The notes under the pieces: generated by a model | The model's database searches: none | Seen by the model: only the letters and a program-made list of their open reading frames with translations | Told to the model about the DNA's origin: nothing | Source of the DNA: a virus | Reading direction: 5' to 3' (one strand) | IMG/VR virus record: IMGVR_UViG_3300022745_000628 | Span: 32,001-96,000 of that record | DNA length: 64,000 nucleotides | Translations under genes and position numbers: made by a program | Part shown: positions 1 through 46,179 of the stretch, in pieces | Layout of the letters: the number at the start of each line of letters is the position of its first letter | Position numbering within the stretch: position 1 is the first letter of the stretch

Positions 1-2
1 TT

Positions 3-131
3 ACACGGGCTTCGCAACATAAACGTCCTCGTATGTTGGTGAAATTACACCAGACTGTGATGCACGGAATAATTACTTCGCTTATCGAGAAACAAGTGGA
101 TATAGCCTTTATCGTCAATGTGGCCAGGTGA
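3..131 (+). CDS. 3' end of an ORF entering the window, probably the preceding array member
   Basis: Frame 3 is open from base 3 to TGA at 129-131, 3 nt before the ATG at 135, with the same tight packing as the array. Confidence 0.4.
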   Translation, partial: TRASQHKRPRMLVKLHQTVMHGIITSLIEKQVDIAFIVNVAR

Positions 132-134
132 TTT

Positions 135-419
135 ATGTATCAAACCAACTCAGAACCAATGACGCTTAACGTGAAAATGTGGTTATCGCTCGCGCCTAGC
201 CCGCCAACTGCCCAAACATTTAACCTCTATATGCATACACCATCGGCGTACTATTTTTGCAGACACCCGCAATCCGAAGAGCACGGATACGAAATTTTAC
301 GATTGTGGTGTGAAACCCATATATTCTTACTACACAAGTTAGATCCGTTAGCTAAAGGTCATGTTACCTGGCTTATACCGCTTCCAAAGTATTTCCGAAG
401 ATATGCCAAGTGGGGTTAA
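135..419 (+). CDS. NxxMW-family small protein
   Basis: LNVKMWLSL. Confidence 0.8.
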   Translation: MYQTNSEPMTLNVKMWLSLAPSPPTAQTFNLYMHTPSAYYFCRHPQSEEHGYEILRLWCETHIFLLHKLDPLAKGHVTWLIPLPKYFRRYAKWG

Positions 420-633
420 TGACGCCATGTGGCGTAAACTAGACATGCATACCGAACACTGTAATGGCCATATTAGTCAGCCGTGGCCAGCGTGGTGCGT
501 TATGGCCGCCCAACTTGTATACACAGGGTTAGAGTTCGCAACCATTTTAGCGCTTATTCGAAATAACCATAATAACGCACTTTTTCCACCGCAGGTACGG
601 AGAATTATAACTGATGTCATATATAAGCCATAG
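403..633 (+). CDS. NxxMW-family small protein (start moved from 361 to ATG 403)
   Basis: MPSGVNDAMWRKL; overlaps the previous stop. Confidence 0.75.
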   Translation: MPSGVNDAMWRKLDMHTEHCNGHISQPWPAWCVMAAQLVYTGLEFATILALIRNNHNNALFPPQVRRIITDVIYKP

Positions 634-850
634 AATGTGGGCACGGCTGGCAATAGATAGAGATTTACGTTTCCAAATAGCTTGCCCTAGTAACGTCTGG
701 ATAAATACTCGCGCTTTCCCAAAGCACACACCACTGCTGCACAAAGTATGTACCCCACTCACCACACTTAATTCATTCGACGTTTTTTGGCACGCGCGCA
801 CGGTAGAGCACGCCGTTTTTAGCGCAATCGACTTCAGTTATCTAGCTTAG
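614..850 (+). CDS. NxxMW-family small protein
   Basis: ISHRMWARL; 20-nt overlap. Confidence 0.8.
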   Translation: MSYISHRMWARLAIDRDLRFQIACPSNVWINTRAFPKHTPLLHKVCTPLTTLNSFDVFWHARTVEHAVFSAIDFSYLA

Positions 851-862
851 GGAGCCGGCTGT

Positions 863-1162
863 ATGCCTAAATTGAAGAAAAATGCGGTGAGCGCACTTAA
901 TCGAGATATGTGGGCAAAATTGGAGATCCCTATTGCACACATACGCAGCCCGTTTGATAACAGCCCTGATTTAGCAGGTTATATTATTCTGCACAAAGAC
1001 TTAATGAGGCCTACTAATGATTGGGCAGCTGCAAAAATAAACATATTTTGGTCAAGTTCTTTTTCGGATGTAATAATCCTGCTTCGGGCAGCAGTAAATA
1101 GTACTCGGGATTGTACCTATCCATTGGAGTCCGGAGTGTTGCATGACGCTGTTAGAAACTAG
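863..1162 (+). CDS. NxxMW-family small protein
   Basis: LNRDMWAKL; GGGAG upstream. Confidence 0.8.
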   Translation: MPKLKKNAVSALNRDMWAKLEIPIAHIRSPFDNSPDLAGYIILHKDLMRPTNDWAAAKINIFWSSSFSDVIILLRAAVNSTRDCTYPLESGVLHDAVRN

Positions 1163-1163
1163 T

Positions 1164-1421
1164 ATGCCAGATAGTAATGTGCACCAGTTAATGTGGAAGA
1201 AGTTGTTAATCGGAGAATCCAACGGGCTCGCGTACGGTCCCGCTAACATAGTGTACAACGGTATTTTTCCTAAAGGTTTCAACAACGTTAGGTTAGATAT
1301 GCTTCACATAGTTACTAACTATTTATACCTGTCGTCACGAATTAGTCGCAGTGTGTACACGGAATTACGCCAAGCGGTACGTCTGAGAAATCCTTTGCGA
1401 GATTCACGAGGAGATGAATGA
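1164..1421 (+). CDS. NxxMW-family small protein (ATG 1164 preferred to 1143)
   Basis: VHQLMWKKL. Confidence 0.75.
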   Translation: MPDSNVHQLMWKKLLIGESNGLAYGPANIVYNGIFPKGFNNVRLDMLHIVTNYLYLSSRISRSVYTELRQAVRLRNPLRDSRGDE

Positions 1422-1696
1422 GCGGCTTAAATAAACAAATGTGGCGACAGCTATACTTGGATAAAAAACTCTTAAAAGATAGCACTCTCGCAGGCGCTGT
1501 TCCGAATGGACGTAGTTTTAGGCCGGACTATATCCGCGGGTACACCGGTGCGGTACTAAAGCACCACATGCCCGATAGATTACGAGATAACGTAAAAATG
1601 ACACATACGGTGTCGCTACCTATTCGCGGTGCCATATTTTCCAACTTCAACGCTGTATTCAGAAAGTTAGCTTTTGATGTTGATCACTTCTCATGA
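1418..1696 (+). CDS. NxxMW-family small protein
   Basis: LNKQMWRQL; ATGA overlap, GAGGAG upstream. Confidence 0.85.
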   Translation: MSGLNKQMWRQLYLDKKLLKDSTLAGAVPNGRSFRPDYIRGYTGAVLKHHMPDRLRDNVKMTHTVSLPIRGAIFSNFNAVFRKLAFDVDHFS

Positions 1697-2024
1697 TTTT
1701 TCTAGCAGATCTACCGGCGTTGCGTATGCGATGTGGTTTAAATTAATATTCGCAGACAAGCCGTGTGATCCTAACGAGGCGAGTTACATACGACCACAAA
1801 ATATTAGCAAGGTTGGCCCGTTGGAACTTGCTGGGCCGGATATGTCGGAATTCGAGATACTCCCATATTTGCACGATGTATGCAGCCAAACTGTAGCTGA
1901 TTACCTTATTTGCATAGACGATTACACCTTGACGTACATGCGTACGGCTATCCAAGACATAGAATTTCGACTAGAACACGTCCAGTTAGAAATGGCAAGC
2001 GCTGTGTGCTGTGATAAAGATTAA
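1674..2024 (+). CDS. NxxMW-family small protein
   Basis: VAYAMWFKL. Confidence 0.7.
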   Translation: MMLITSHDFSSRSTGVAYAMWFKLIFADKPCDPNEASYIRPQNISKVGPLELAGPDMSEFEILPYLHDVCSQTVADYLICIDDYTLTYMRTAIQDIEFRLEHVQLEMASAVCCDKD

Positions 2025-2405
2025 ATGCGTAAGATGCCGTACAATTTCCTGTTAACTCTGGCGGATCAGCTAGATAGCGCACTTGCGTTTCTAGGCTTGT
2101 CCGGTTGGGTGCGACAGCCTATCAATATTCGAATGCAACTGAAGCTTCAACATAGGTATGTAAGCGAGGTATGGGATGCTTGGGCGCAACGCCGATTGTA
2201 CAATCCATTAGAGATGCCGGGCTGGATATATCCCAGATATGATCCTTGCCATATGCTACCGCGAGCTATTTCTGCGCGACAGCATGAAGCGCTTACGCAG
2301 TTAAAAATTAATTGGATGCGCAGCCTAATGTTGTTAGAAGTTGCGTTTATGATGCAGTTGCGACTGCGATTATTCACAAAATTAAGGAACTTAGGCTGTG
2401 CGTGA
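2025..2405 (+). CDS. NxxMW-family variant
   Basis: INIRMQLKL (W to Q); start uncertain. Confidence 0.6.
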   Translation: MRKMPYNFLLTLADQLDSALAFLGLSGWVRQPINIRMQLKLQHRYVSEVWDAWAQRRLYNPLEMPGWIYPRYDPCHMLPRAISARQHEALTQLKINWMRSLMLLEVAFMMQLRLRLFTKLRNLGCA

Positions 2406-2622
2406 CAATCCTGTCGGTAATCAGATGTCGAAAAAATGCTTGGATGCGAGCCGCGCGGTGTACGCTGTGCCGTACGTGGCGCATAATAAAATCCATTGGT
2501 GTGATGGACATTTGACAAATGTTGCGTGTGTGTATGGCACCACTGACTTGCAGATCATTGAGCATATCCACAACGTTACCGTGGCCAGGTACATTAAATG
2601 GAGGCAGGTTGATGTCGTTTAA
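2398..2622 (+). CDS. Degenerate array member
   Basis: GNQMSKKCL is a weak motif match; fills the gap with overlaps on both sides. Confidence 0.5.
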   Translation: MRDNPVGNQMSKKCLDASRAVYAVPYVAHNKIHWCDGHLTNVACVYGTTDLQIIEHIHNVTVARYIKWRQVDVV

Positions 2623-2869
2623 GCTTATTAACCTGTTAATGTGGTGGAAACTTGCGGGGGGTACCACTGCGGAAGGCCCTAAAAATATATGCGCTGCCGC
2701 AGGTGCAACTATTCGTACGCAGCTTAAGATCGCGTTATCAGATACGTACGTGACTGCTTATACCGTTACTGGCCTACGAGACGCACACACTCGGAGCAGG
2801 GTACTTCAGGAAACTATTTATGATGTGTGCGATCAAATTGCAGATCAGTGGAATATCAACGAATGTTAA
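2612..2869 (+). CDS. NxxMW-family small protein (start moved from 2519 to ATG 2612)
   Basis: MSFKLINLLMWWKLA. Confidence 0.8.
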   Translation: MSFKLINLLMWWKLAGGTTAEGPKNICAAAGATIRTQLKIALSDTYVTAYTVTGLRDAHTRSRVLQETIYDVCDQIADQWNINEC

Positions 2870-2972
2870 ATTCTGCAATGCTGTACAAAGCCGCTAGTTA
2901 TTACGGTATCGCGTTAAATGTGCACGGTTATTATTTAGACCGGAACAAGCTTAACGATGATGAGAATAGTTA

Positions 2973-3000
2973 TCAAAACGATAGTATTTCATCGTTTTGA
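2973..3000 (-). ncRNA. Hairpin, likely part of the TnpB omega-RNA scaffold
   Basis: Perfect 10-bp stem TCAAAACGAT (2973-2982)/ATCGTTTTGA (2991-3000) overlapping the tnpB 3' end. Confidence 0.5.
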
Positions 3001-4070
3001 GTCCGATTGTCCGAGCGACTATAAACTGCTCGGTTGAGGATATTGACGGCCGCGTTTGTATCCGCGTCCGTTTCGTACCCACAAGAAACACACCGATAAG
3101 CCAGGCCTACCCTGGAAGATCTATCGATGTTTCCACACCTGGAACAAGTTTGCGAGGTGTAAGCGGCAGGAACATCCTGTACGCCCACACCCTTAGCCGC
3201 GCACTTGTCTTTGATCTTTTGCAATGTCTTGGAATAAACCCACGACGCCATTTTATTGGCGAATCGCCTGGACATTGTTCGAGAGGCTCGGGTGCCGCGC
3301 TTAACGTTTTTAAGCGCTTCAAGCACTACGTAAGTAGGCTGCTCTGCCGCCAGCATCTGATTTACAGCCTTGCCGACAAGGTTGTCTCGTTGCTGCATGG
3401 TGCGCTGGCGGTTTACAGACCCTCGTTTTTGTCTTGCTAGCTTTTCGTAAACCCGTTCTAGCTCTTGCCCATAAATATTGCCGGTAGAAGTAGCGAGTAA
3501 ACGCTTGTAACCGCAATCCACGCCTACTGGTTTATCGCCAGGCGAAGTAGTCGCAGCTACTTCTTTTTCAAAGCAAACATCTAGATAAAATCTGTTACCA
3601 ACTTGCCGCAGTCTGGCGGACTTACTTAGCTGCCAACCGTCTGTAACAAACGCGTTGAAGTGCTTGTGTTTGTGCGTAGGCAGTGCCAGTTTAATCCCCC
3701 TCCCTAGTGAAGCCAGCCTGACCCAGAAATCGAACGAAGTAGTTTGAGCGTTTCTGTCGAAGGTTACAAATCGGCTGTCTAAATTGATCACAGATCGGCG
3801 AAACACAGGTTTACTTGTGCATCGCCCCCGCGATAATCTAGCTTTCGCGGATTTCACGATCTCGGAAGCTTGCTTACCTAAGCATTGCTGCAGCCTTGCG
3901 GATAGCCAACTATCTACTTTTTGCGTTACAAACTTTACCTTAGGAGCCTCCCAAAGTAAGTCGATGTAAAGATTCACTACGCGAACGGCTTCTACCATAA
4001 CTTCGGCTAACGCAGTCTTTTTGCCCGCGTTGCTGTACGCCAAATTGAGTTGGCAACGTCTAATCTCCAT
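2973..4070 (-). CDS. tnpB: TnpB RNA-guided nuclease (IS607-associated), 365 aa
   Basis: RuvC motifs VGVDCG, VVLEAL and DADTNAAVNI; zinc finger CSRCG...CVSCG. Confidence 0.93.
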   Translation of the reverse strand: MEIRRCQLNLAYSNAGKKTALAEVMVEAVRVVNLYIDLLWEAPKVKFVTQKVDSWLSARLQQCLGKQASEIVKSAKARLSRGRCTSKPVFRRSVINLDSRFVTFDRNAQTTSFDFWVRLASLGRGIKLALPTHKHKHFNAFVTDGWQLSKSARLRQVGNRFYLDVCFEKEVAATTSPGDKPVGVDCGYKRLLATSTGNIYGQELERVYEKLARQKRGSVNRQRTMQQRDNLVGKAVNQMLAAEQPTYVVLEALKNVKRGTRASRTMSRRFANKMASWVYSKTLQKIKDKCAAKGVGVQDVPAAYTSQTCSRCGNIDRSSRVGLAYRCVSCGYETDADTNAAVNILNRAVYSRSDNRTQNDEILSF

Positions 4071-4617
4071 GTTGCAACTCCTGTATCAATTTTTCTGTGT
4101 TACGTTGCGTCCTACGACGCCCATAAAGGCGAGCGCAGAAACTGGTGACAATGGCCACAAAATCTTGCATTAGGTCGCTTTTGTCGTCCATCGCTGGGTT
4201 TATGACTACAAACTCACAAGCTGGTTTTGCTGCTACCAGCAAGTTAAAACCAAATCGCGTCAGCCGGTCCTTATGCTCTATCACAATCCTGGCAACTGTA
4301 TCGTCTCGCAAAATCTTTAGTAACTTTTTACGATCGTCATTTAGTCCGCTTCCGATCTCCGTAACAATGTCTGAGACTATCCAACCTTTGGCAGCGCAAA
4401 AGCTAGCTACGCGTTCGGCCTGGGTTGTCAGCTTGCTTTTGTTTTGAGCAGAGCTCACGCGCGCGTAAACAATCGTCTTGCCAACTATTGCGGCATCTTC
4501 TATACACACGGTACCAGTTGGCAGCCTATACGCCCCAGGTATTTTTCCTGCCTTGAATTGCTTCCACGCGGTTTGGTAAGTAATGCCGTGTTGTTTTGCG
4601 TAATCTCGTAATCTCAT
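4060..4617 (-). CDS. tnpA: IS607-type serine recombinase with N-terminal HTH
   Basis: N-terminal HTH (YAKQHGITYQTAWKQF), catalytic YARVSS, EIGSGLN and IEHKDRLTRFGF. Confidence 0.95.
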   Translation of the reverse strand: MRLRDYAKQHGITYQTAWKQFKAGKIPGAYRLPTGTVCIEDAAIVGKTIVYARVSSAQNKSKLTTQAERVASFCAAKGWIVSDIVTEIGSGLNDDRKKLLKILRDDTVARIVIEHKDRLTRFGFNLLVAAKPACEFVVINPAMDDKSDLMQDFVAIVTSFCARLYGRRRTQRNTEKLIQELQHGD

Positions 4618-4623
4618 GTTTTT

Positions 4624-4632
4624 ATTATAGCA
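4624..4632 (-). promoter_or_regulatory. Extended -10 promoter (TGcTATAAT) for a probably leaderless tnpA transcript
   Basis: Minus strand reads TGCTATAAT, then AAAAAC, then the tnpA ATG. Confidence 0.55.
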
Positions 4633-4786
4633 AAGGAATACAAAAGACTATGCCTTATTCAAAAGAATTTCAATACCTTCTCAACGTCGGCTGTCCATGA
4701 CGTTGCGTTTGAGCTACATATTAAAGAACAGCAACGTATATTGTTTTTATTGCTTGACAAGCAGTTGCGCGGCACAGGAGTTAAAA

Positions 4787-5023
4787 TTGAGTTTTAATAT
4801 TAAAATGTGGTTACGCCTTGTGATATTTCCAATACATAAGTTTCGGCGTCGCGAGCCACATGACGGGTTGTATGCTGGGGTCGTAACACCAGAATTTCGC
4901 ATAATGCTGGATCAGGGAATGGCAATAGCCCACATACATTCAAAAGTACATATGTTGCAGTCTATGCCTGTGGAGCTCCCTGTACATCATGTAATCGAGG
5001 AAATCGTTTATGACAGAGCTTAA
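4787..5023 (+). CDS. NxxMW-family small protein (TTG start 4787)
   Basis: AGGAG 6 nt upstream; FNIKMWLRL ... LYAG. Confidence 0.8.
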   Translation: MSFNIKMWLRLVIFPIHKFRRREPHDGLYAGVVTPEFRIMLDQGMAIAHIHSKVHMLQSMPVELPVHHVIEEIVYDRA

Positions 5024-5261
5024 AGAAATGGAAGAGTGGTGGTCTGTAAACAAGCTCATGTGGGACAGACTAGCGGCAGCAGCAATAATACGCGAGCGAC
5101 CAGCGGACATACGGTACGCTGGCGAAGCACGCGCTTTCTTTGCTAAGCTGTCGCATCAAGCGTATAAAATATCAGGTACGTATGAGGCCAGATTTCGAAA
5201 TATGTCTGGGCAGATCGCCGTATATTATGTAATCTCGGAAATTGTCCATGTCAAAACATAG
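5010..5261 (+). CDS. NxxMW-family, 238-nt core unit 1
   Basis: VNKLMWDRLA ... PADIRYAG. Confidence 0.9.
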   Translation: MTELKEMEEWWSVNKLMWDRLAAAAIIRERPADIRYAGEARAFFAKLSHQAYKISGTYEARFRNMSGQIAVYYVISEIVHVKT

Positions 5262-5499
5262 CGAACAGTTAGTCAGATTGTCAATAAACAAGCTCATGTG
5301 GGATAAGTTAGCTGTAGCAGCGTCTGAGTACGAGAGTCCGAGTAATTTCTGTTACGCCGGTGGCATGGACGCTTTAGTAATTAACATGTCGCTGTCCCAC
5401 TATGCCGTATTATTATCCTACGCTGATAAACATAAACATCAGCCAATGTTTATCGGCGTGCAGCGGTTAATCGTGAGAATTGTCGATGCCAAAACATAG
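5242..5499 (+). CDS. NxxMW-family, core unit 2
   Basis: INKLMWDKLA ... PSNFCYAG. Confidence 0.9.
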   Translation: MSMSKHSEQLVRLSINKLMWDKLAVAASEYESPSNFCYAGGMDALVINMSLSHYAVLLSYADKHKHQPMFIGVQRLIVRIVDAKT

Positions 5500-5734
5500 A
5501 GAACTTTCAATGAAATTAGCAGTAAACGAACTCATGTGGGATAGGTTAGCCGTTACAGCATCTGAGTACGAGCGGCTGTCTGAGTTCTGTTATGCGGGCG
5601 GTGTTAGCCGTTTACTAGCTAACATATCGATCCAACAATATAAAGGATTACTAGCTCATATAGAGAATCTTAGACATACCTCCACGCATCTTATCTTGCA
5701 GGTACTTATCCAGAAAACTGTACGGCAAAGCTAG
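5480..5734 (+). CDS. NxxMW-family, core unit 3
   Basis: VNELMWDRLA ... FCYAG. Confidence 0.9.
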   Translation: MSMPKHRELSMKLAVNELMWDRLAVTASEYERLSEFCYAGGVSRLLANISIQQYKGLLAHIENLRHTSTHLILQVLIQKTVRQS

Positions 5735-5744
5735 AGAACTTTCA

Positions 5745-5972
5745 ATGAAATTAACAGTAAATAAGCTCATGTGGGATAGGTTAGCGATTGAGAGCATTGA
5801 TTTCCAGCCAGCGCATAATACCGCATACTCCGGTAGCAGAGAGGCTTTAGTAGCTAAAATGCAATATAAGCAGTATACTTACTTCATGGAGTGGATACCT
5901 ATGGTGCAGTATCACCTAAGTTTGGTTGTAGTGGATAGGGCAGTCAGGCGCATATTGTATGCCAGAACATAG
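5745..5972 (+). CDS. NxxMW-family, core unit 4
   Basis: VNKLMWDRLA ... PAHNTAYSG. Confidence 0.9.
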   Translation: MKLTVNKLMWDRLAIESIDFQPAHNTAYSGSREALVAKMQYKQYTYFMEWIPMVQYHLSLVVVDRAVRRILYART

Positions 5973-6210
5973 CAAACTTTCAATTCGCCGGCCAGTAAAC
6001 AAGCTCATGTGGGATAAGCTAGCGGTTAAGTCAAATAGTGATGAGTATCCGAGTGCCGTACAGTACGCTGGGGATACATCCCCTTTAGTAAATAAGATAA
6101 CGTGGCAAGGTTATAACACAGTGATGGCATATGTAAGCTTGATGAGATACAGTTCCGCATATTACGCAGTATATGATTTAATAGAGGAAATTGTTTATGA
6201 CAAAAGCTAA
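5959..6210 (+). CDS. NxxMW-family, core unit 5
   Basis: VNKLMWDKLA ... PSAVQYAG. Confidence 0.9.
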   Translation: MPEHSKLSIRRPVNKLMWDKLAVKSNSDEYPSAVQYAGDTSPLVNKITWQGYNTVMAYVSLMRYSSAYYAVYDLIEEIVYDKS

Positions 6211-6448
6211 CAGGCGTCCAATCAAATTACCAGTAAACCGGCTTATGTGGGATAGCTTAGCGATTAAAGCAGATGAGTACGAGAATCCGGCTCATGTCTG
6301 TTATGCCGGCAGTAAGGACGCTTTAGTAGCTAAAGTAACGCTGGCGCACTATCACGGATTACTAGACTATGCATATAATACGCAAAATATTTCATCGTCT
6401 ATTAGCCTGCAGCAATTAATCAGGAGAACTGCGAATGTCAAGCCATAA
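6191..6448 (+). CDS. NxxMW-family, core unit 6
   Basis: VNRLMWDSLA ... PAHVCYAG. Confidence 0.9.
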   Translation: MFMTKANRRPIKLPVNRLMWDSLAIKADEYENPAHVCYAGSKDALVAKVTLAHYHGLLDYAYNTQNISSSISLQQLIRRTANVKP

Positions 6449-6686
6449 CAAACATCCAATCAAATTACCAGTAAACCGGCTTATGTGGGATAGTCTAGCA
6501 GTCGAGCCCATTGATTTCCAGATACCGCACGATACATGTTACGCTGGCAGTACGACTGGTTTATTAACTAAGATGCCGAAGGCGCAATATAACGTATTAC
6601 TAGACATGGTAGCTGTTATGCCGTATCCGCAGACTTCTCTTGTCGTGTATAGTCTATTAAAGAGAATTTGGCATGTCGGAGTATAA
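6435..6686 (+). CDS. NxxMW-family, core unit 7
   Basis: VNRLMWDSLA ... PHDTCYAG. Confidence 0.9.
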   Translation: MSSHNKHPIKLPVNRLMWDSLAVEPIDFQIPHDTCYAGSTTGLLTKMPKAQYNVLLDMVAVMPYPQTSLVVYSLLKRIWHVGV

Positions 6687-6930
6687 CAAACATCCAATCA
6701 AATTACCAATAAATAAGCTTATGTGGAATAAGCTAGCGGCCAATTCATTAGAGAAGGAGCTACCGAATCACACCGTTTGCGCTGGCGATATAGGCGCTTT
6801 CATGCCTGACAGGCCATCGTCGTCGTCGGAAGATTACCAAGCGCTATACTATGCCGCTAGATTGTCAAATGTATTTGTGGACTTCGTTGCGCATGCGGCA
6901 ATCGGTGAAATTGTTTATGGCAAAAATTAA
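6673..6930 (+). CDS. NxxMW-family, core unit 8
   Basis: INKLMWNKLA ... PNHTVCAG. Confidence 0.9.
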   Translation: MSEYNKHPIKLPINKLMWNKLAANSLEKELPNHTVCAGDIGAFMPDRPSSSSEDYQALYYAARLSNVFVDFVAHAAIGEIVYGKN

Positions 6931-7177
6931 TAAATTTCTAGTGAAATTACCAGTAAACAAGCTCATGTGGGATAGGTTGTCGGCTGACGCGTTAGAGAGT
7001 GAGCTGCCTGGTAACTACTATTACTCCGGCCGATTTAACAGCGCCATGTATAGCCGGCAATGGCAGGCATGCGGCATAATACTAGCCGTTGCAGAGGATC
7101 CGCGGTATCTTCGACAGTCTAACGAGTCTAACGGCGTGCACAAAATAATCTTGGAAATTGTGCATGCCCGCACATAA
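6917..7177 (+). CDS. NxxMW-family, core unit 9 (ATG 6917)
   Basis: VNKLMWDRLS ... PGNYYYSG. Confidence 0.9.
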   Translation: MAKINKFLVKLPVNKLMWDRLSADALESELPGNYYYSGRFNSAMYSRQWQACGIILAVAEDPRYLRQSNESNGVHKIILEIVHART

Positions 7178-7430
7178 CGAACATCCGGTCAAATTGACGG
7201 TGAATAAGCTTATGTGGTACGCACTGACGGATGCGCCCATTTATTATGAAATAATGATTGACACTTGTTACGCTGGTAGCGCCGGGCCTTTCTTAGATGT
7301 CATGCGATGGGTTCAATATAAAACACTGCTGGACCACGTCAATAGAACGATGCCAGCCGATAGTTTGCAACTGACGCTGCTAAGCAGCGCTACCGTCCCA
7401 CTTCTAAAACTAGACCGGTTTCAAAAATGA
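7158..7430 (+). CDS. NxxMW-family, core unit 10
   Basis: VNKLMWYALT ... TCYAG. Confidence 0.9.
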   Translation: MCMPAHNEHPVKLTVNKLMWYALTDAPIYYEIMIDTCYAGSAGPFLDVMRWVQYKTLLDHVNRTMPADSLQLTLLSSATVPLLKLDRFQK

Positions 7431-7645
7431 TAAATCACAAAATGTACAGACTATTAGCGCTAGCACAGCCAAACTTCGAGCAGCCTTCCAATAGCGTATT
7501 CGTTGGCTCGGTAGCCGCACTATTAAGCCGTGTGGAGCACCATACCATTGTGTTTAAATGTACTGCAGTGGCGGAGCTTTGTAAGCTGCATATATCAATT
7601 TCAAAAGAACTTTGGCTATTGCAAGGTAAATATTTTGACTATTAA
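7427..7645 (+). CDS. NxxMW-family variant
   Basis: INHKMYRLL ... PSNSVFVG. Confidence 0.8.
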   Translation: MINHKMYRLLALAQPNFEQPSNSVFVGSVAALLSRVEHHTIVFKCTAVAELCKLHISISKELWLLQGKYFDY

Positions 7646-7904
7646 CAATCAAATGTGGGACAAATTGCAAATTACAGGCCACACAGTCTCGCTGTTTCCA
7701 GGTGATGCAGTGTATATCGGTTTAAAAAGCTATTTATATGCGAATATGCAAGTAATTGGTGCCTATACAGATTGGTTCCAGTTCACACACTTTTGGTCAA
7801 AAGTGTACATGCGTCATAACGATATTATCCGGCACAACCCGGAGCAGGATTTACCACTCCCTCTTTGGTACGAGCAAAATGACATCTACATCCCAGAATG
7901 GTAA
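7635..7904 (+). CDS. NxxMW-family small protein (TTG 7635)
   Basis: INNQMWDKL ... PGDAVYIG. Confidence 0.8.
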   Translation: MTINNQMWDKLQITGHTVSLFPGDAVYIGLKSYLYANMQVIGAYTDWFQFTHFWSKVYMRHNDIIRHNPEQDLPLPLWYEQNDIYIPEW

Positions 7905-8190
7905 TGTACCAGCGCCTATAACGGTAAATGAGAAAATGTGGGATCGCACAATCCGCGGGTCTTATATTATTACGACTAACCGCTATTTCAACAAGCCCGA
8001 TGACAATTGTTTTGATGGAGATCTGGTAATGGTCGTGTCGAAAGTCCGTGCACTTATCGACACCAATAACAAGATGTGTGCTGCGTTCGAGATCCAGTGG
8101 CGCTACCAGCGAGCCGCATACATGGCATCGATCGCTCAAGCTAACACGTTAGGCTGTGAGATAGACGAATACATTCCACTACTTTGGTAA
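7879..8190 (+). CDS. NxxMW-family small protein (ATG 7879)
   Basis: VNEKMWDRT ... PDDNCFDG. Confidence 0.8.
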   Translation: MTSTSQNGNVPAPITVNEKMWDRTIRGSYIITTNRYFNKPDDNCFDGDLVMVVSKVRALIDTNNKMCAAFEIQWRYQRAAYMASIAQANTLGCEIDEYIPLLW

Positions 8191-8201
8191 CGGGCTAGTT
8201 A

Positions 8202-8522
8202 ATGCAAACAACGCAACACAATGTTGAAATTTTGACTCCGAATAATAAAATGTGGGACAAGCTGCTGTATGCGACAGCCGGGAGAGTAGCCAAAATACCC
8301 GCGAATTTAGAACTGTATACTCCGGGCAATATATGGGGTACGTATATCGCGCACTGGCATATTAACCACCTGTTTAGCTGTAAAATGGCTGTGGTGCAAC
8401 TGGACGAAGTCGTAGAAGTGTTGTGTGGCGGGGATATGCGCATACGCGCGTACGTAAGTACATATTCGTACATCGATTTTGTTATACGTACCGCGATATA
8501 CGCACATACAGACAAATTTTAA
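8202..8522 (+). CDS. NxxMW-family small protein
   Basis: PNNKMWDKL. Confidence 0.8.
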   Translation: MQTTQHNVEILTPNNKMWDKLLYATAGRVAKIPANLELYTPGNIWGTYIAHWHINHLFSCKMAVVQLDEVVEVLCGGDMRIRAYVSTYSYIDFVIRTAIYAHTDKF

Positions 8523-8525
8523 ATT

Positions 8526-8765
8526 ATGCTGCCAACCATAAATACTAAGATGTGGTGGACATTGTCGCCTAGTCACGGCCCTATTACGCGAGATATACAG
8601 ATAAATCGCGGCTTCTCGGTGGGTACCCCTGCATTGGCAGTTCGGATGCACATGCACCTCGATCAAAACATTAATATTTTTTACAGTTTGAATTATAAAT
8701 CTCCGTATAGTTCTGTGGAGTCGATCGTGCAAAGTATCGCTAAAAGAATGTGTGCTGACAGGTGA
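8526..8765 (+). CDS. NxxMW-family small protein
   Basis: INTKMWWTL. Confidence 0.8.
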   Translation: MLPTINTKMWWTLSPSHGPITRDIQINRGFSVGTPALAVRMHMHLDQNINIFYSLNYKSPYSSVESIVQSIAKRMCADR

Positions 8766-9031
8766 TTACAGGCAACAGTGTCAGCAAACGAATGTGGGAA
8801 AAATTAACAATACCCGGCTGGATTGCTGTCGGATGCATAGTTGCTCCACAAATAGGTGTTATGTCCGCGGATGGCGGATTGTTTAGCCGTGTACACGACA
8901 TATGTCCAGCGGGCGACGGCGCGCAATTTTGGTTGCAATCCGCGCCTCAGAATTTTATGGCGCATTTCATACGTAAAGAATTAGCGCACATCTGTATCGC
9001 CATCGCTATACAGAATAGCGGTCGCGCATGA
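8762..9031 (+). CDS. NxxMW-family small protein
   Basis: VSKRMWEKL; GTGA overlap. Confidence 0.8.
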   Translation: MITGNSVSKRMWEKLTIPGWIAVGCIVAPQIGVMSADGGLFSRVHDICPAGDGAQFWLQSAPQNFMAHFIRKELAHICIAIAIQNSGRA

Positions 9032-9273
9032 CTAACTATATCCCACTAAATATCCGGATGTGGCACAAGTTAAGTGGCGGGTATATTGCGGGTAGTTCGT
9101 TAAAATCCAGCTCGAAGTATGGCGGTATTTTGGATGCTCCACACGCAGGTATTTCGGTACAAGGCTACACCATGCACAATCTGTTTCTACACAACGCTTG
9201 CGAGGAAATAGCACACTTTAACTATGGTAACACAATTAGGCTATATAGCCTATTTGCGCACCTACTGTACTAG
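9028..9273 (+). CDS. NxxMW-family small protein
   Basis: LNIRMWHKL; ATGA overlap. Confidence 0.8.
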   Translation: MTNYIPLNIRMWHKLSGGYIAGSSLKSSSKYGGILDAPHAGISVQGYTMHNLFLHNACEEIAHFNYGNTIRLYSLFAHLLY

Positions 9274-9293
9274 TATGTCTGATCGGAGGTAAC

Positions 9294-9566
9294 GTGAATT
9301 CGACAATTGCAGTTAGCATGCATATGATAGCGATTGGGGCAAAAAATACTGCGGTTCCGACTAATGGAACCACATGGAGTATAGGCGCCTGGGAGGTGCT
9401 CAAGGCGTCGTACAATACATGCGGGGACGCCTATGGCAAGAGTAGTGTATTGACGCTACTACTAAATCCAATTGTTTATAGATGGCGTAATGTTGCGAAA
9501 AGTGTCTACATTCTTGAGATCATAGAGGCTGCCAAAATTTCAGAGGAGGTAGAAGTATGTTTATGA
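9294..9566 (+). CDS. Small protein in the array, motif barely recognisable
   Basis: GGAGG upstream of GTG; same size and packing; VSMHMIAI is only a weak match. Confidence 0.55.
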   Translation: MNSTIAVSMHMIAIGAKNTAVPTNGTTWSIGAWEVLKASYNTCGDAYGKSSVLTLLLNPIVYRWRNVAKSVYILEIIEAAKISEEVEVCL

Positions 9567-9817
9567 GAGACCTAATACAAATTCAAATATATCAAAAGCT
9601 TAGCGACGACCAAATCTGCCCGTCGCGAATAACACGTGAAACGCGGCTATTCCATCATGAACTATATCCGGCAATTAGGAAAACTGTCGGGACTAGGCTG
9701 GGTAGTTACGCTAGTTTTATGGATCACGCCCTTACCTTTGACGTGCAGGCAGACATACTGTCCGAGTTGTACAACCATTTGCCTAAATCGTGGGGAGATA
9801 GCGTTGTTACTAGCTGA
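9557..9817 (+). CDS. NxxMW-family variant
   Basis: IQIQIYQKL; GAGGAGG upstream. Confidence 0.65.
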   Translation: MFMRDLIQIQIYQKLSDDQICPSRITRETRLFHHELYPAIRKTVGTRLGSYASFMDHALTFDVQADILSELYNHLPKSWGDSVVTS

Positions 9818-10052
9818 TCAAATGTGGCATAAAATTAATCACGGTCGTATGAGCGGGCACGACATAAAGCCCGTTCATTTTGCAAGCATAGACTTGCGAG
9901 TGTGCGTGTTGCGGCAATTGGAGTACTCACACGCTATGTCCGATTGGATGCATGCTGCTGATGGGTTGCACAGCACCTTTACAGCAGTATCGCGCGCCAT
10001 GTACCGGCGAACCGCAACACTAACATATTTCAAACAATCGGTAAGAGTATGA
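9804..10052 (+). CDS. NxxMW-family small protein (TTG 9804)
   Basis: GGGGAG upstream; LADQMWHKI. Confidence 0.75.
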   Translation: MLLADQMWHKINHGRMSGHDIKPVHFASIDLRVCVLRQLEYSHAMSDWMHAADGLHSTFTAVSRAMYRRTATLTYFKQSVRV

Positions 10053-10270
10053 AAAACCTGGGAGATAGAACGATAGCCTGGCACATGCTGCGACTTACAG
10101 TTACCAGTGCGTATACCGAGTATATGCGTGTAGTAGAATCAAGCGCACTAGGGTTCTATTATTCAGATGTTGCGACTATAAAAAACATACATAGTTTTGC
10201 GTATAAAAATAAGCACCGCATGGAACAACCGGTGCTTCGTCGTATGGCGGAGTGTATTGCCAATGGTTAA
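10049..10270 (+). CDS. Degenerate array member
   Basis: IAWHMLRLT; ATGA overlap. Confidence 0.55.
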   Translation: MKNLGDRTIAWHMLRLTVTSAYTEYMRVVESSALGFYYSDVATIKNIHSFAYKNKHRMEQPVLRRMAECIANG

Positions 10271-10565
10271 ACGACGAATTAAATTGCGAAAAGGTATTCA
10301 CATTAACAAGCTACCTAATCGGAAAATGTGGTTAAGTCTGTGTCTACGCGCTACAATCAGGGATACGTCTTCCGATCAATACGCTGTCGACGGCTATTCA
10401 TACGCTGGTCCGCTGTGTTCTGAGCAATATCCACATGCGCTGTGGTTGGACGAAATGCTATGGATACAGCGCTGGCAGTTTGTTAATTACGACACTTTTT
10501 ACACTTTTACAAATCTCATAGAATATGACCATTTGCGGCTTATTGTAAAACGTTTACAAGGGTAG
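10263..10565 (+). CDS. NxxMW-family small protein (ATG 10263)
   Basis: PNRKMWLSL ... YSYAG. Confidence 0.8.
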   Translation: MVKRRIKLRKGIHINKLPNRKMWLSLCLRATIRDTSSDQYAVDGYSYAGPLCSEQYPHALWLDEMLWIQRWQFVNYDTFYTFTNLIEYDHLRLIVKRLQG

Positions 10566-10569
10566 TTAT

Positions 10570-10794
10570 ATGCTTAATCAAAAAATGTGGGCACTGCTGA
10601 GCTTAGACGGTTATGGCGGCGACGGGTCTCCATGCTATACATTTATGAATGTCAGAAAGCCTAGACGACTCTTTGCGCAGATAGAAGCATTTATTCTGCC
10701 TTGGTTTTTATTAAACAGACACAACAACTTACAGAACAAGCATATAGATAACGAAGTTACACATATTGCGAGTGACGCCATATGGAAAATATAG
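10570..10794 (+). CDS. NxxMW-family small protein
   Basis: LNQKMWALL. Confidence 0.8.
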   Translation: MLNQKMWALLSLDGYGGDGSPCYTFMNVRKPRRLFAQIEAFILPWFLLNRHNNLQNKHIDNEVTHIASDAIWKI

Positions 10795-10991
10795 CACGGC
10801 AGATGCAACCAGGCATAGACGGATTTGATAAGACTACATCCGCTCTGGTTGGAGCACCATTCGAAGAATGTGCGTGGATTTTACACTACGGAGTCAGAAC
10901 GCCATACAGTTGTTATCGAGAACTTGAAAAGGCGGTAACCGTTTTTTGTGACAAATTGGAGGCGGCACAATATGAACACCTCTGCGTTTAA
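10782..10991 (+). CDS. Degenerate array member
   Basis: IARQMQPGI is a weak match; overlapped packing. Confidence 0.55.
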   Translation: MENIARQMQPGIDGFDKTTSALVGAPFEECAWILHYGVRTPYSCYRELEKAVTVFCDKLEAAQYEHLCV

Positions 10992-11277
10992 AAAACCGCG
11001 CACGATACAACTTCAGATGTTGGAAAAGCTCGTATTAGACCATACAGATCCTCAGTTTTTGACTGGTCCTACGCATAACGGTTTTTTTGGTATCGGCGTA
11101 GCCCGCATAAACAATCGCGTATGGCCGTGCCGGTGGACATGCTGCTCCGAGCTTGCGTACTATATCAGAGGCACGTACGGTATGGAGGCAAAGTTGCGAT
11201 ATACAACGTTACTGTGCATAGACATAACAAGTATAGACAGTCTTTCTGGAGAATGGTGGCATGCAGCCGAAGCTTAA
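10972..11277 (+). CDS. NxxMW-family variant (ATG 10972)
   Basis: IQLQMLEKL; 20-nt overlap. Confidence 0.65.
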   Translation: MNTSAFKKPRTIQLQMLEKLVLDHTDPQFLTGPTHNGFFGIGVARINNRVWPCRWTCCSELAYYIRGTYGMEAKLRYTTLLCIDITSIDSLSGEWWHAAEA

Positions 11278-11515
11278 CGTATTGATGTGGAAAAAGATAG
11301 CATTGGTAAGGCCGGCACGTGCTGAAAAACCTAGTTTTGTGGTATACGCCGGAGTGTTTTTTGCTAATGAAATTGACGCAGACTCGATCATAGCGTGCGT
11401 AACCTATATGTGCGATATTGTTTTGGCATATGCGCTGGCAGGATACAAGCCGCATGGAGACGTCATCACGAACGTCTTTGTCAATTATACGGATGGGATA
11501 GACGTTGGGATATAA
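11261..11515 (+). CDS. NxxMW-family small protein
   Basis: LNVLMWKKI ... PSFVVYAG. Confidence 0.85.
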   Translation: MQPKLNVLMWKKIALVRPARAEKPSFVVYAGVFFANEIDADSIIACVTYMCDIVLAYALAGYKPHGDVITNVFVNYTDGIDVGI

Positions 11516-11801
11516 AACAAAATCGGGAGCTGTCATGATCAATCGTCAAATGTGGAACAAGCTTGCTTTTTTCGGAATTTGGCCAGGCGAACCTCCGAGT
11601 AGTGTGCAATACGTCGGCATGCCGACACCTTGTGTAGTTAAGTTTAGAAATGTGCGCGGCGCTGTGGTAAAAGATGACCACATACATGGAGCGCAATACT
11701 ACGCAGCGCAACTCGATCTACAGCAAGGCTCTTTAGAGGATAGCCTGCTATGGCACTTACACTCGCAAGTTGAATGGGTTATTACATATAAGAATGGGTA
11801 G
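11505..11801 (+). CDS. NxxMW-family small protein (ATG 11535 is an alternative start)
   Basis: INRQMWNKLA ... PSSVQYVG. Confidence 0.85.
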   Translation: MGYKTKSGAVMINRQMWNKLAFFGIWPGEPPSSVQYVGMPTPCVVKFRNVRGAVVKDDHIHGAQYYAAQLDLQQGSLEDSLLWHLHSQVEWVITYKNG

Positions 11802-11809
11802 CGGTAGCA

Positions 11810-12070
11810 ATGCTAAGAATCAATCTAAAAATGCAGGGTAAACTTGTAATGTTTCAAGAATCGCCGGGTCTTAATAGTGGGAATCGGCGGTACTACGGCT
11901 CGGCATATTGTTATATACTTCAAAATAACATGCTAAACAATCTCAGCACATTTAGTCAGTTGGACAATACGCTATTTAAAAGTAACTTCAAATTTAGCTC
12001 CACTACGCTCGCGCCGGACGTAGCCATTTCTAATATTGTGAGTCTCTCAGATGATAAATCAATCCATTAA
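11810..12070 (+). CDS. NxxMW-family variant
   Basis: INLKMQGKL ... RYYG. Confidence 0.75.
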   Translation: MLRINLKMQGKLVMFQESPGLNSGNRRYYGSAYCYILQNNMLNNLSTFSQLDNTLFKSNFKFSSTTLAPDVAISNIVSLSDDKSIH

Positions 12071-12329
12071 TAATAAAATGTGGGTTAAACTCGCGCTAGT
12101 AGTTACGCGTAATTACAACTATGCTGTAAATAACTGGCTATACGCAGGGCGCGCGCCGGCTTACATTTCCGACTGGATACACTATGACGCCTATTGTTAT
12201 ATTGTGCAAGTAACCAATACAATATTGCATTCGCATTCTCTGCATGTATCAGCTGCGCCAGAGGCTTACTTAAACATTACAGTACGCTTTTACCTGAATA
12301 GGAAATATAATGGTCACAGTAAATCGTGA
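12051..12329 (+). CDS. NxxMW-family small protein
   Basis: INNKMWVKLA ... LYAG; 20-nt overlap. Confidence 0.85.
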   Translation: MINQSINNKMWVKLALVVTRNYNYAVNNWLYAGRAPAYISDWIHYDAYCYIVQVTNTILHSHSLHVSAAPEAYLNITVRFYLNRKYNGHSKS

Positions 12330-12489
12330 AATGGAGGCAAAACTTGCCGAGGGGAAATCGATGATTAGCATCCGAATGCTCTGCGTTGGGGCCATACACT
12401 ATAAACTTACTGTTGAAGTGCCAGACCACAATATAAAAGACATCATCACGCACATTGTGCACCATACCTACTCGAGAACAAATGCGTAG
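12310..12489 (+). CDS. NxxMW-family variant, 59 aa, missing from the ORF track
   Basis: Hand translation MVTVNREMEAKLAEG...YSRTNA*; 20-nt overlap with the previous gene. Confidence 0.7.
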   Translation: MVTVNREMEAKLAEGKSMISIRMLCVGAIHYKLTVEVPDHNIKDIITHIVHHTYSRTNA

Positions 12490-12799
12490 TATTTTGCAGC
12501 AGATGTGGGATAAGCTATGTATATGGTCAGCGGTTTATAGCTCAGACTTAGATAATTCAATGGGTAATCATATGTATAGTGGCGTGACGCGTCCATACTA
12601 TAACGTAGCCAATTGTTCCGCGCGCCATAGCGCTGACTTGGAAATAGTTCTGAAACATCGCTCTGCGATGTATGACTGTTTTGCAGCTCAAAGAAACTCG
12701 CCATTACGCACCAGCGCTGTACATGGAATAATAGGAAAATATGACTATGCCGCGATCTCTAGACGGAAGGTTAAAATAAAGTCCCGTGTTGACGCTTAA
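12482..12799 (+). CDS. NxxMW-family small protein (ATG 12482; GTG 12455 alternative)
   Basis: ILQQMWDKL ... MYSG. Confidence 0.8.
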   Translation: MRSILQQMWDKLCIWSAVYSSDLDNSMGNHMYSGVTRPYYNVANCSARHSADLEIVLKHRSAMYDCFAAQRNSPLRTSAVHGIIGKYDYAAISRRKVKIKSRVDA

Positions 12800-13022
12800 T
12801 CAACGAATGTGGAAGACGCTTGCGTTTGGAGGCAGCCTAATGGTTCACTATCCTAGTGATATACGGTACCTAGGCTACAGCTGGTATACTTTTGAAATAA
12901 GAAAAGTCGTAGATAGGGAGGTAGTATACTCCATACTGTATCCGTGGCCTTTAAAATTACATATCAGCGTAGCAGCGGCGTTCGCCAATTCGGCATATCT
13001 TGAGGAGTATCGTTGGTACTAA
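12786..13022 (+). CDS. NxxMW-family small protein, last in the array
   Basis: LNQRMWKTLA ... PSDIRYLG. Confidence 0.85.
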   Translation: MLTLNQRMWKTLAFGGSLMVHYPSDIRYLGYSWYTFEIRKVVDREVVYSILYPWPLKLHISVAAAFANSAYLEEYRWY

Positions 13023-13048
13023 AGTACCGAGTTATATATGCGAAGCAC

Positions 13049-13082
13049 CTAAATTTAAGCCATAAATGCGTCATATATAGTG
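13049..13082 (+). promoter_or_regulatory. Bipartite motif copy 1, putative phage promoter
   Basis: CTAAAT-N13-GCGTCATATATAGTG. Confidence 0.7.
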
Positions 13083-13172
13083 TAGGAGGTCGGTATTGCT
13101 GTGCGGCATACCGATATGTGGCAGCGCTAGTGCTGTGCGAATATATAGGTCTTTACTTTTAGGAGTTCCATA

Positions 13173-13646
13173 GTGAACACATGTACCGAGTTTGAGCGCA
13201 ATGTGCAACTAATCAGTTTGAAACTGATCCCGATCATTTCGAAACAGGCAAGCATAACCTGCTTGGCAGATGTGACCAGTCTGGCCATAGTTATGTTGAA
13301 CAACATAAACGAAGCCGTTGAGCAGTGCCCACGGTTAAACCGAGACACGGTTATTACACTGGCCGTCCAAATTTTCGATATCGAGCTCAATCGTCCGATC
13401 GCTGAAGGCGATGATGCCGAAGGTATGGAATGGATGGCTCTGGCGAAACACAGCGCGGTCGAAGCGCTGAAAATCTGTTCGGAGCTGTCAAACCGCATGC
13501 AAGCGGCTATGGACAGAGATATTACGCAACGTAAAGTGCAACGTACTTTATACGTATCGCATTACATCGGAAAGGCGCTTCGCGGTGTCCGCGGTGCGAC
13601 AACTCGAATTTGGAATATCCGATCGCGCGCACGCGCGCACGCGTAA
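13173..13646 (+). CDS. Hypothetical protein, predicted helical
   Basis: 157-aa ORF downstream of motif copy 1; GGAG upstream. Confidence 0.7.
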   Translation: MNTCTEFERNVQLISLKLIPIISKQASITCLADVTSLAIVMLNNINEAVEQCPRLNRDTVITLAVQIFDIELNRPIAEGDDAEGMEWMALAKHSAVEALKICSELSNRMQAAMDRDITQRKVQRTLYVSHYIGKALRGVRGATTRIWNIRSRARAHA

Positions 13647-13667
13647 AACGTATGTGCTGAACGGGTA

Positions 13668-14021
13668 ACAACAGCATGTCGTCAAGCGCTGTTGTCAGTG
13701 CATATGTCGGGTGGCGTGTGATATTGTTGCTAGTTTAGCACGGTACTCACACGCCACTTTAATACACTCTGGGTCGCAGTATCCAGAGCACGCGAGCGGG
13801 TAATGATTAACTTGAGACCGCAACTCAAGTCCCCGCTCGCTTCTTTTTAACTCGTACTGCTGTAGCCAACTGCGTTGCGGTACTGGCTACGATGTGGCAT
13901 GAGGCGCTGGGTGTTACCAGGTAATTACTTATTGTTTTCCATCCTATAAGTGATATCGGGAAAAACAACTGCGCATTTTGGCATGCGCAGTTGTCGGTAG
14001 CGCCCAGCGCTTTTTTTTTTT
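13668..14021 (+). ncRNA. Candidate structured RNA(s), two multi-stem units each ending in a U-tract
   Basis: Stems at 13711-21/13747-57, 13792-800/13832-40 enclosing 13810-16/13824-30, 13862-68/13884-90, and 13904-11/14003-10 enclosing 13965-75/13984-94. Confidence 0.55.
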
Positions 14022-14122
14022 GATTTGACCAACTGTTTAAAAGCGAGGATCGTTTTGACAACTTTTTATATGTCGTTTTGCATCATTCCAGCTAGTGCTC
14101 GGCAGCTGGCCATCACACAAGT

Positions 14123-14518: not shown

Positions 14519-14789
14519 CCGCGAACACGTGGTAAGGTATTTTAACAGTATGCGCTGGTCGCGTGTGCCTACCGGGTCTTGGCCAACGCGAAACATCACT
14601 GCTTTTGCACATATATTGTCTACGCGTTCCGTCGCTATAGCGGGTACCAACGCCTACTGGCTCGCGGCCAACATTAGAAACGATTCAGATAGTGCGCTGG
14701 AAGATTTATTTATCCGACGCAATGCGCGATTACCACAGGCGGTGTTTATATACTTACTCGCGCTACGCGCTGATGGTTTAGATGAATAA
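14490..14789 (+). CDS. Hypothetical protein
   Basis: Overlaps both neighbours. Confidence 0.6.
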   Translation: MRNMLSFQSDREHVVRYFNSMRWSRVPTGSWPTRNITAFAHILSTRSVAIAGTNAYWLAANIRNDSDSALEDLFIRRNARLPQAVFIYLLALRADGLDE

Positions 14790-15180: not shown

Positions 15181-15242
15181 TGTTAGTTACGCACGTTTAT
15201 TCGTAATAGTTTTGTTCTTCATATTTAACGGGAGATGTCGCG

Positions 15243-46177: not shown

Positions 46178-46179
46178 CT

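Follow-up and report, generated by a model that had tools for sequence, protein, structure and literature searches.

Why would a bacterial virus carry, one behind another, at least 52 diverged copies of a single tiny gene, and what might the encoded proteins do? The question is posed by IMG/VR virus record IMGVR_UViG_3300022745_000628, which is 193,796 bp long, linear in class and estimated to be 93% complete, and which comes from a phage whose genes lie almost exclusively on the + strand. We analysed bases 32001-96000 of it, a 64,000-nt stretch called the window in what follows; window positions count from its first base, and genome positions refer to the whole record. Window positions 135-13022 hold part of an array of short co-directional genes. 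An earlier inspection of the letters and open reading frames (ORFs), called here the sequence-only reading, had described them as paralogues with a fixed N-terminal motif. We find a protein family under protein-level selection that the relatives of this phage lack, and we tentatively interpret it as an accessory repertoire for interaction with the host.

Extent and membership of the array

The window from 135 to 13022 is tiled by + strand ORFs of 57-144 aa, which overlap (typically by 4, 8, 14 or 20 nt) or abut; the sole interruption is an inserted insertion sequence (IS) at about 2950-4690. The ORF list and its overlaps bear out the near-complete tiling by small overlapping + strand ORFs that had been described. 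At the nucleotide level the N-x-x-M-W motif appears as AAY-N6-ATGTGG; its 27 copies in the window are confined to the + strand and to positions 168-12812. Dinucleotide-preserving shuffles of the window contain this pattern 1.07 +/- 1.02 times, so that the comparison with shuffled sequence proposed in the sequence-only reading places the motif well above chance. When the whole 193.8-kb record is translated in six frames, 45 of 48 N..MW matches fall on the + strand within genome 17755-44798. The strict form [ILV]-N-x-x-M-W-x-[KR]-L had been overcounted: it is present in only 14 window ORFs rather than 33, with N-x-x-M-W in 27 and M-W in 34. A [YF]-x-G element follows within the next 28 residues in 21 of 32 window motif ORFs.

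A local profile, iterated from 44 seeds and used with a member cut-off of E<1e-3, collects 50 ORFs from the genome; every one is a + strand ORF of the array, and neither the minus strand nor the rest of the genome yields any. A second family profile (A2) gives 52 matches in the same genome, again all on the + strand within the array. The window's share comes to about 43 members, against the roughly 44 first counted: 30 profile members at E<1e-3, five at E<1 and about eight motif variants (MQ, ML, ME, MY). When degenerate variants (IW, MQ, ML, ME, MY, MF) are included, the array totals about 65-70 copies.

The suspicion that the array continues upstream of the window was correct, since 20 extra significant members lie at genome 17743-32131. 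Each + strand ORF from genome 27029 to 45022, bar the IS, is a member or likely degenerate member, and about eight further members or likely members are found at genome 17743-18636 and 20329-22408. Non-family genes split this upstream part at about 18.7-20.3 kb and 22.4-27.0 kb (genome). With a start 14 kb before the window and an end at window 13022, the array is about twice as long as first described; it occupies about 14% of the 194-kb genome. The non-family islands within it encode a calcineurin-like phosphoesterase and proteins of no assigned function. The three most upstream members (genome 17743-18636) form a sub-type that lacks the P..Y-x-G element and shares I-D..H-[IL]-D-C-[RE]-H.

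Within the window, the ORF list and the local and A2 profiles delimit a + strand block A (window 135-2869) that is unbroken upstream to genome 27029. Its ten family genes lie at 135-419, 361-633, 614-850, 863-1162, 1143-1421, 1418-1696, 1674-2024, 2025-2405 (an MQ variant), 2398-2622 (weak) and 2519-2869. The first family gene past the IS (4697-5023, + strand) has the C-terminus EEIVYDRA and is nearest to the core sub-array, which consists of ten younger copies on the + strand at 5010-7430, with a period of about 238 nt and junction overlaps that are mostly 14 nt. Older, diverged copies make up block B (7427-13022, + strand; ORF list and profiles). Its genes are 7427-7645, 7530-7904, 7756-8190, 8202-8522, 8526-8765, 8762-9031, 9028-9273, 9294-9566 (weak), 9636-10052, 10049-10270 (variant), 10197-10565, 10570-10794, 10782-10991 (weak), 10948-11277 (ML variant), 11261-11515, 11505-11801, 11810-12070 (MQ), 12051-12329, 12310-12489 (ME), 12455-12799 and 12786-13022.

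Coding evidence, protein anatomy and selection

The array genes are under protein-level selection, because their conserved residues are spelled with all synonymous codons and their conservation is codon-periodic. In the motif region second codon positions are fixed and third positions are free, and the number of synonymous codons in use is 2 for Asn, 6 for Lys/Arg, 6 for Leu, 4 for Pro, 4 for Tyr/Phe and 4 for Gly. In nearly all members an in-frame start codon, mostly ATG, lies 1-20 codons upstream of the Asn, and about half have a Shine-Dalgarno-like word under a loose definition. The M of M-W was considered as the true start codon and rejected, given the upstream in-frame start in nearly all members and the conserved Asn between that start and M-W. 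Under a codon model trained on the long genes of the phage, the family scores 0.081, compared with 0.012 and -0.009 for spurious ORFs (p=5e-5 and 1e-7) and with 0.141 for other small phage genes.

The core junctions (window 5010, 5248, 5486, 5959, 6197, 6435, 6673, 6917 and 7164) have a purine-rich site (GAGGAAA, AGGAGAA, GGTGAAA) 7-8 nt before the ATG, inside the last codons of the preceding gene. The core C-terminal codons, I/L-x-E/R-I-V-Y/H, also serve the next copy, whose ribosome-binding site and ATG they contain. What looks like C-terminal ‘conservation’ in the core is in part a dual-coding constraint, because these codons carry the initiation region of the following gene. We also considered whether the units are silent cassettes that recombine into a large expressed gene, as do pilS or the orphan CdiA/Rhs tips; this was rejected because each unit has its own start and ribosome-binding site and the module is found in no larger gene of the genome.

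The family profile has 68 match positions, among which [ILV]2, N3, M6, W7, [KR]9, L10, P22, [ND]24, Y27 and G29 are strongly conserved. Weaker hydrophobic positions (36, 44, 57, 60, 63, 64 and 67) are helically spaced, and a hydrophobic i/i+3/i+4/i+7 pattern extends to the C-terminus. Mean pairwise identity is 29% over columns 1-29 (12% without the eight motif columns) and 10% over columns 30-68, where composition would give 5.7%; the description of the C-termini as hypervariable was apt. The profile match spans the entire protein length, and for that reason the N-terminal residues, tentatively taken for a docking or sorting module in the sequence-only reading, may just as well form the core of a single small domain. 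The proteins are about 75-100 aa long, with a median of 84 aa from the motif on. Their median pI is 8.9, with values above 8 in 34 of the 50 copies and below 8 in the other 16, and no convincing membrane segment was found among these 50, two being borderline. Ala follows [KR]-L in 20 of them.

AlphaFold2 was run with the paralogues as alignment input. The model of the core member at window 5983-6207 (pLDDT 77, pTM 0.31) has a helix at residues 5-13, a loop at 14-32 and a long helix at 33-74; in that of the member at window 11535-11798 (pLDDT 65), helices are predicted at 4-10, 53-61 and 67-87, with uncertainty in the part between the first two. Two elements are common to both models and the more trustworthy: a helix that covers the motif at the N-terminus and an amphipathic one at the C-terminus. 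A homodimer prediction for two copies of a core member gave a score of 0.01 and a mark of 0.42, which speaks neither for nor against a dimer. The family proteins are basic, soluble and probably helical, as far as composition and these models indicate.

The ten core copies are the only ones that BLAST clusters together, and they are old, with pairwise dS from 0.45 to saturation. Whole-protein dN/dS in the core, at 0.3-1.1 with dS near saturation, is uninformative before the protein is divided. The core alignment was split after the Y-x-G motif into an N-part (the 30 N-terminal residues) and a C-part. The N-part has a pN/pS of 0.54, indicating purifying selection, and the C-part a pooled pN/pS of 1.00; in the five closest core pairs dN/dS is 1.1-2.3 in the C-part and 0.23-0.91 in the N-part. 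This suggests that the tail sequence is either unconstrained or driven to differ. Under neutral substitution at the observed divergence, one 45-codon C-part would stay open with a probability of 0.22-0.36, and all nine core C-parts with a probability of 1e-6 to 1e-4. All the frames are open despite this, so the tails must be translated in full length. The split in pN/pS supports the constant N-terminal module and diversifying remainder of the sequence-only reading. Its further claim, that variants rather than dosage were selected, also appears to hold, since the two halves evolve differently and the frames stay open.

Along the array, similarity declines weakly with distance (Spearman -0.18), and the best match of a copy is a near neighbour in 7 of 50 cases, where 4 are expected. 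The weak trend fits old duplications together with exchange between copies. A 593-bp contig of another sample, deposited in the European Nucleotide Archive (ENA), passes from genome 38974 back to 37992 over 25 identical bases (it spans 38595-38974 and 37992-38229) and encodes a chimeric protein. It is either a duplication junction or population variant, or an assembly chimera. Over the array, IS included, two further assemblies of 197.5 kb and 44.9 kb agree with the record at 99.99% identity.

Origin and surroundings of the array

The family belongs to nothing that we could find. Among 1.84 billion representative proteins, a profile built from 30 window members retrieved 23 at E<=1e-3: 22 of the phage's own and, besides these, the chimeric protein of the 593-bp contig. 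Such a search needs about 37 bits, a far higher threshold, and whole genomes were therefore also searched. Ten members had no match below E=0.03 in NCBIfam 20 or PHROGs v4, and in Pfam-A a single one, ColG_sub, at 18.8 bits under a cut-off of 27.8 bits. Matches were likewise absent when the family was searched by sequence profile against the PDB and when the array was compared by megablast with 50,697 phage records. For the first structural model, Foldseek (PDB, BFVD) and an Atlas shape search returned long-helix look-alikes only and nothing significant, and the best score in an Atlas feature search, 0.79, was under the useful range. The match to a characterised family that would have counted against the sequence-only reading did not appear, and in agreement with its failure to recognise the family, these collections gave nothing outside the phage itself.

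The phage encodes its own RNA polymerase (RNAP), a 1493-aa protein of bacterial, multisubunit type (window 32963-37444) with the Rpb2_6 and Rpb1_2 domains in one chain. With an RNAP alignment as query, at least 390 relatives were retrieved from IMG/VR, at 40-68% identity and on uncultured contigs of about 170-230 kb; the single RNAP protein as query retrieved none. Judged by these RNAP relatives, the clade of the phage is large and uncultured. Among cultured phages, Salmonella Arash and Vibrio D69, D148 and D181 have RNAPs only about 30% identical to that of our phage.

The A2 profile has no match at E<=0.1 in 20 relatives from the RNAP clade (15 of them at least 90% complete), with 52 in the own-genome control, and none at E<=1 in the whole records of phages 121Q and G; the family profile has none in Arash and D69. 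Clustering by BLAST found no similar arrays in Arash, D69 and two clade relatives, a weak test since BLAST links only 10 of the phage's own copies. The closest relative is a 50.8-kb ENA contig with an RNAP 68% identical, of which the 30 kb upstream of the RNAP gene was compared. It is collinear on both flanks, with homologues in order of genome 6417-12831 and 50286-64674. Between these blocks it has about 8.7 kb (8683-17369), and our phage 37.5 kb (genome 12831-50286). Within the 37.5 kb only one gene (genome 23152-23496) has a homologue in the relative's gap, and the compared stretch of the relative holds no family member and no motif. Two more distant relatives have almost no genes in common with the first 50 kb of our genome. 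By this comparison the array region is a hyperplastic, variable stretch between conserved blocks. Because the relatives, including the syntenic closest one, are without the family, the array arose and expanded within the phage's own lineage as a tandem multigene family, with every one of its 52 matches in one place.

The IS inside the array (about window 2950-4690) has two minus-strand genes, tnpB at 2973-4070 (Pfam PF07282, 4.2e-20; PF01385) and an adjoining gene for a resolvase-type serine recombinase at 4060-4617 (PF00239, 1.4e-15), the arrangement of the IS607 family. The element is present and identical in three independent assemblies; nothing close was found in plasmids by blastn or in species genomes by a TnpB scan. 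On the + strand at 2827-3000 the translation gives a candidate family member, with L-N-S-A-M-L-Y-K and then Y-Y-G, whose 3' part runs into the IS and abuts the tnpB stop at 2973. From its position, the IS probably splits the family member beginning at 2827.

Directly past the last array gene, at window 13068-13084 on the + strand, stands the motif GCGTCATATAT[AT][AG]TG. The exact word GCGTCATATA occurs nine times in the genome, always on the + strand (genome 13799, 14890, 25838, 45068, 48444, 49006, 49702, 137156 and 176430); seven of these fit the longer GCGTCATATAT[AT][AG]TG, and a control pattern has no occurrence. The copies at genome 13799, 14890 and 25838 stand upstream of array blocks, so that the motif brackets the blocks. 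Most copies lie in the 14-50 kb small-gene region and none in the head module. We infer that the motif stands for a candidate class of promoters, which the RNA polymerase of the phage, or a redirected one, would read; flanking the array and absent from the head module, it fits a temporal class other than that of the structural genes. The array is followed by one 157-aa ORF, a structured stretch and then a terminator-like GC-rich hairpin with T10 (window 13999-14021, + strand; terminator scan), a possible 3' end of the array transcription unit. In window 1-14500, a sigma-70 promoter scan gave 31 sites where 31.6 are expected, which is uninformative, and the terminator-like sites numbered 20 against 13.8 +/- 3.8.

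Elsewhere in the window, a 770-aa protein (22001-24313) has Hint and LAGLIDADG domains, which point to an intein; its 766-aa homologue in the closest relative has the same LAGLIDADG match. A 598-aa protein (25210-27006) may be a nucleotide-modifying enzyme: its N-terminal part has a weak match in a thymidylate-synthase PHROG, and its C-terminal part matches a PHROG of unknown function. Five head-module ORFs at window 43928-53470 (genome 75.9-85.5 kb) contain K-x-A tripeptides at 1.9-3.6 fold over composition. This enrichment is rare outside the head module, and a maturation-protease site is a candidate reading of it.

Possible roles and relation to known systems

We give a probability of about 0.45 to the reading of the array as an accessory host-interaction repertoire in which a constant handle is joined to variable tails. 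It is ranked first because a conserved handle, a changing rest, a high copy number and fast turnover resemble proteins that meet polymorphic targets. Under this interpretation a lineage-specific family would have grown by tandem duplication and unequal recombination to its at least 52 copies in an accessory, hyperplastic part of the genome. Each protein would consist of a constant module of about 30 residues, a short helix with N-x-x-M-W-x-[KR]-L followed by a loop with P-x-[ND]-x-x-Y-x-G, and a helical tail of about 45 residues, in which the sequence is either free to vary or driven to do so, provided that it is translated in full. The array would be expressed as long, translationally coupled operons. 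The constant module may provide a common fold or a common contact and the tails many different binding surfaces, and the repertoire as a whole would serve counter-defence or host takeover. A more specific version, which we think doubtful, has some 60 variable tails each recognise a different polymorphic component of host defence or surface, with the invariant module handing all of them to one partner. Candidates for that partner are an adaptor or a protease, the RNA polymerase of phage or host, and the prohead, from which the proteins would be injected. Such a germline-encoded set of binders, all built on the same tiny scaffold, would give a phage its counterpart to a combinatorial library for immune evasion, one that originated and grew within a single lineage.

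Several observations weigh against a host-interaction repertoire. The amino-acid composition of the family is nearer to random sequence than to the long proteins of the phage (low in D, E, G and A; high in H, Y, C and W). A pN/pS near 1 is also the outcome of weak constraint, and the frames could be kept open for no other reason than that a long operon depends on translational coupling and on continued transcription downstream. The confidence of the fold models is moderate to low (pLDDT 77 and 65, pTM about 0.3), and the sole basis of the promoter assignment is a sequence motif.

Among the rival explanations, the array might encode packaged internal proteins, whose N-terminal helix targets the capsid, perhaps with proteolytic trimming, and which are injected with the DNA as a counter-defence set like the internal proteins (IPs) of T4. 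The T4 IP locus is polymorphic, and its proteins share only an N-terminal targeting sequence of about 10 residues that ends at an L/I-x-E protease site. Small basic proteins (median pI 8.9) with a constant N-terminal segment and a variable body would suit such a role, as would the K-x-A tripeptides of the head module taken with the [KR]-L-A that follows M-W in part of the family. Yet the link to K-x-A is weak because Ala follows [KR]-L in just 20 of 50 copies, and K-x-A is unproven as a cleavage site. The consensus, [ILV]-N-x-x-M-W-x-[KR]-L-[A/x], has no conserved Glu corresponding to the T4-type site, the distance from start to motif varies from 1 to about 18 residues, and homology and hydrophobic pattern span the whole protein. 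The candidate promoter class flanking the array is, moreover, absent from the head module, and we consider packaging unlikely. A reading of the motif as a DNA or RNA signal (promoter, iteron or host-factor site) with incidental ORFs has in its favour that AAY-N6-ATGTGG is short, strictly repeated and strand-specific. It is close to refuted by a conservation that tracks codon positions, with Leu, Pro, Gly and Lys/Arg spelled in all their codons, by second and third conserved elements (P and Y-x-G) at a fixed residue distance, by start codons just upstream, and by about 65 consecutive open frames.

The array could instead be mostly filler, a young and perhaps de novo gene spread by unequal crossing-over, with the extra DNA tolerated or needed for headful packaging and the frames open only since stops would break translational coupling and cause downstream polarity. 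The C-part pN/pS of about 1, the random-like composition, a codon score under that of other small phage genes, the tightly coupled junctions with a ribosome-binding site inside the preceding gene, the tolerated IS and the absence of the family from all relatives examined are what this would predict, and it has been proposed that, once the capsid has become larger, genomes can grow by tandem duplication (Hua et al. 2017, PMC5646251). It is weakened by the seven to eight positions (N, M, W, K/R, L, P, Y, G) kept with free codons in about 50 copies that are otherwise at about 10-20% identity, since this needs selection on each protein; the C-part dN/dS of 1.1-2.3 in the closest pairs also indicates pressure to differ and not drift alone. 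We judge filler improbable. Small nucleic-acid-binding or regulatory proteins, which coat or organise phage or host DNA or RNA or tune the phage RNA polymerase, seem quite unlikely. Most copies are basic and predicted to be helical, the phage has its own multisubunit-type RNA polymerase, and transcription-factor or structural DNA-binding roles have been suggested for a comparable expansion in phage G (Iyer et al. 2021, PMC7824862). However, library scans of ten members found neither a helix-turn-helix nor a zinc ribbon nor any other signature of nucleic-acid binding, the pI lies below 8 in 16 of 50 copies, and a structural coat would favour dosage and a conserved sequence, not a freely changing body. 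The probability left over belongs to something we have not thought of.

Hyper-expanded arrays of tiny paralogues are among the least understood genes of large phages. Here the origin of one can be dated because the closest syntenic relative is without it, and the young core sub-array lets duplication, recombination and selection be read directly. The locus is thus a good system for asking how virus protein families are born and diversify, and it could be used to test the idea of counter-defence repertoires. If that idea is true, such arrays would supply many small inhibitors of bacterial immunity; if they are filler instead, they bear on phage genome growth.

Among known systems, the T4-type IP locus encodes polymorphic small basic proteins with unrelated or fast-changing bodies, including the counter-defence protein IPI*, from three to a dozen genes. 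It was reportedly treated by Repoila et al. in 1994 and by Comeau and Krisch in 2005. The likeness lies in small basic proteins with a shared N-terminal segment and fast-changing bodies; our family differs in its homology over the full length, in having no conserved site of the L/I-x-E kind and in its some fifty copies. The WXG100/ESAT-6-like proteins (PF06013) gave no Pfam match with ten members, and unlike in their hairpins, the Y-x-G lies at residues 27-29 after a 9-residue helix rather than at a hairpin centre. The MGF110, MGF360 and MGF505 families of African swine fever virus (ASFV) and the amplification of K3L in poxviruses are tandem paralogue expansions by unequal recombination with a suspected role in host range or immune evasion. 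Tandem paralogues in a variable region, copy-number change by unequal recombination and a suspected host-directed role are common to these and to the present array. They belong to another virus realm with other hosts and have no sequence relation to it, and the copies here are old, with dS near saturation, and not recent dosage amplifications.

The nearest precedents are in jumbo phages G and 121Q, which contain tandem arrays of more than 30 small paralogous genes (Hua et al. 2017, PMC5646251). In Bacillus phage G about 35 zinc-ribbon copies have been called an ‘unprecedented’ lineage-specific expansion (Iyer et al. 2021, PMC7824862). Like these, ours is a very large, lineage-specific and co-directional tandem array of one small diverged protein, carried by a large virulent-type phage and attributed to tandem duplication. 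It differs in its copy number, the highest among those cited, in its conserved N-terminal N-x-x-M-W-x-K-L / P..Y-x-G module, and in a genome (193.8 kb) under the 200-kb jumbo limit. Unlike the expansion in phage G, it has no conserved Cys column or zinc-ribbon pattern, and no sequence match in the phage G record. The first and last 50 kb of the 121Q record did not reveal where its array lies, so the comparison with it was of profile against sequence, and the whole record holds no A2 match. The array described here is thus a new, unrelated protein family and, because comparable arrays have been reported in phages G and 121Q, a further case of a phenomenon that is already known, though unexplained: the large tandem paralogue arrays of phages.

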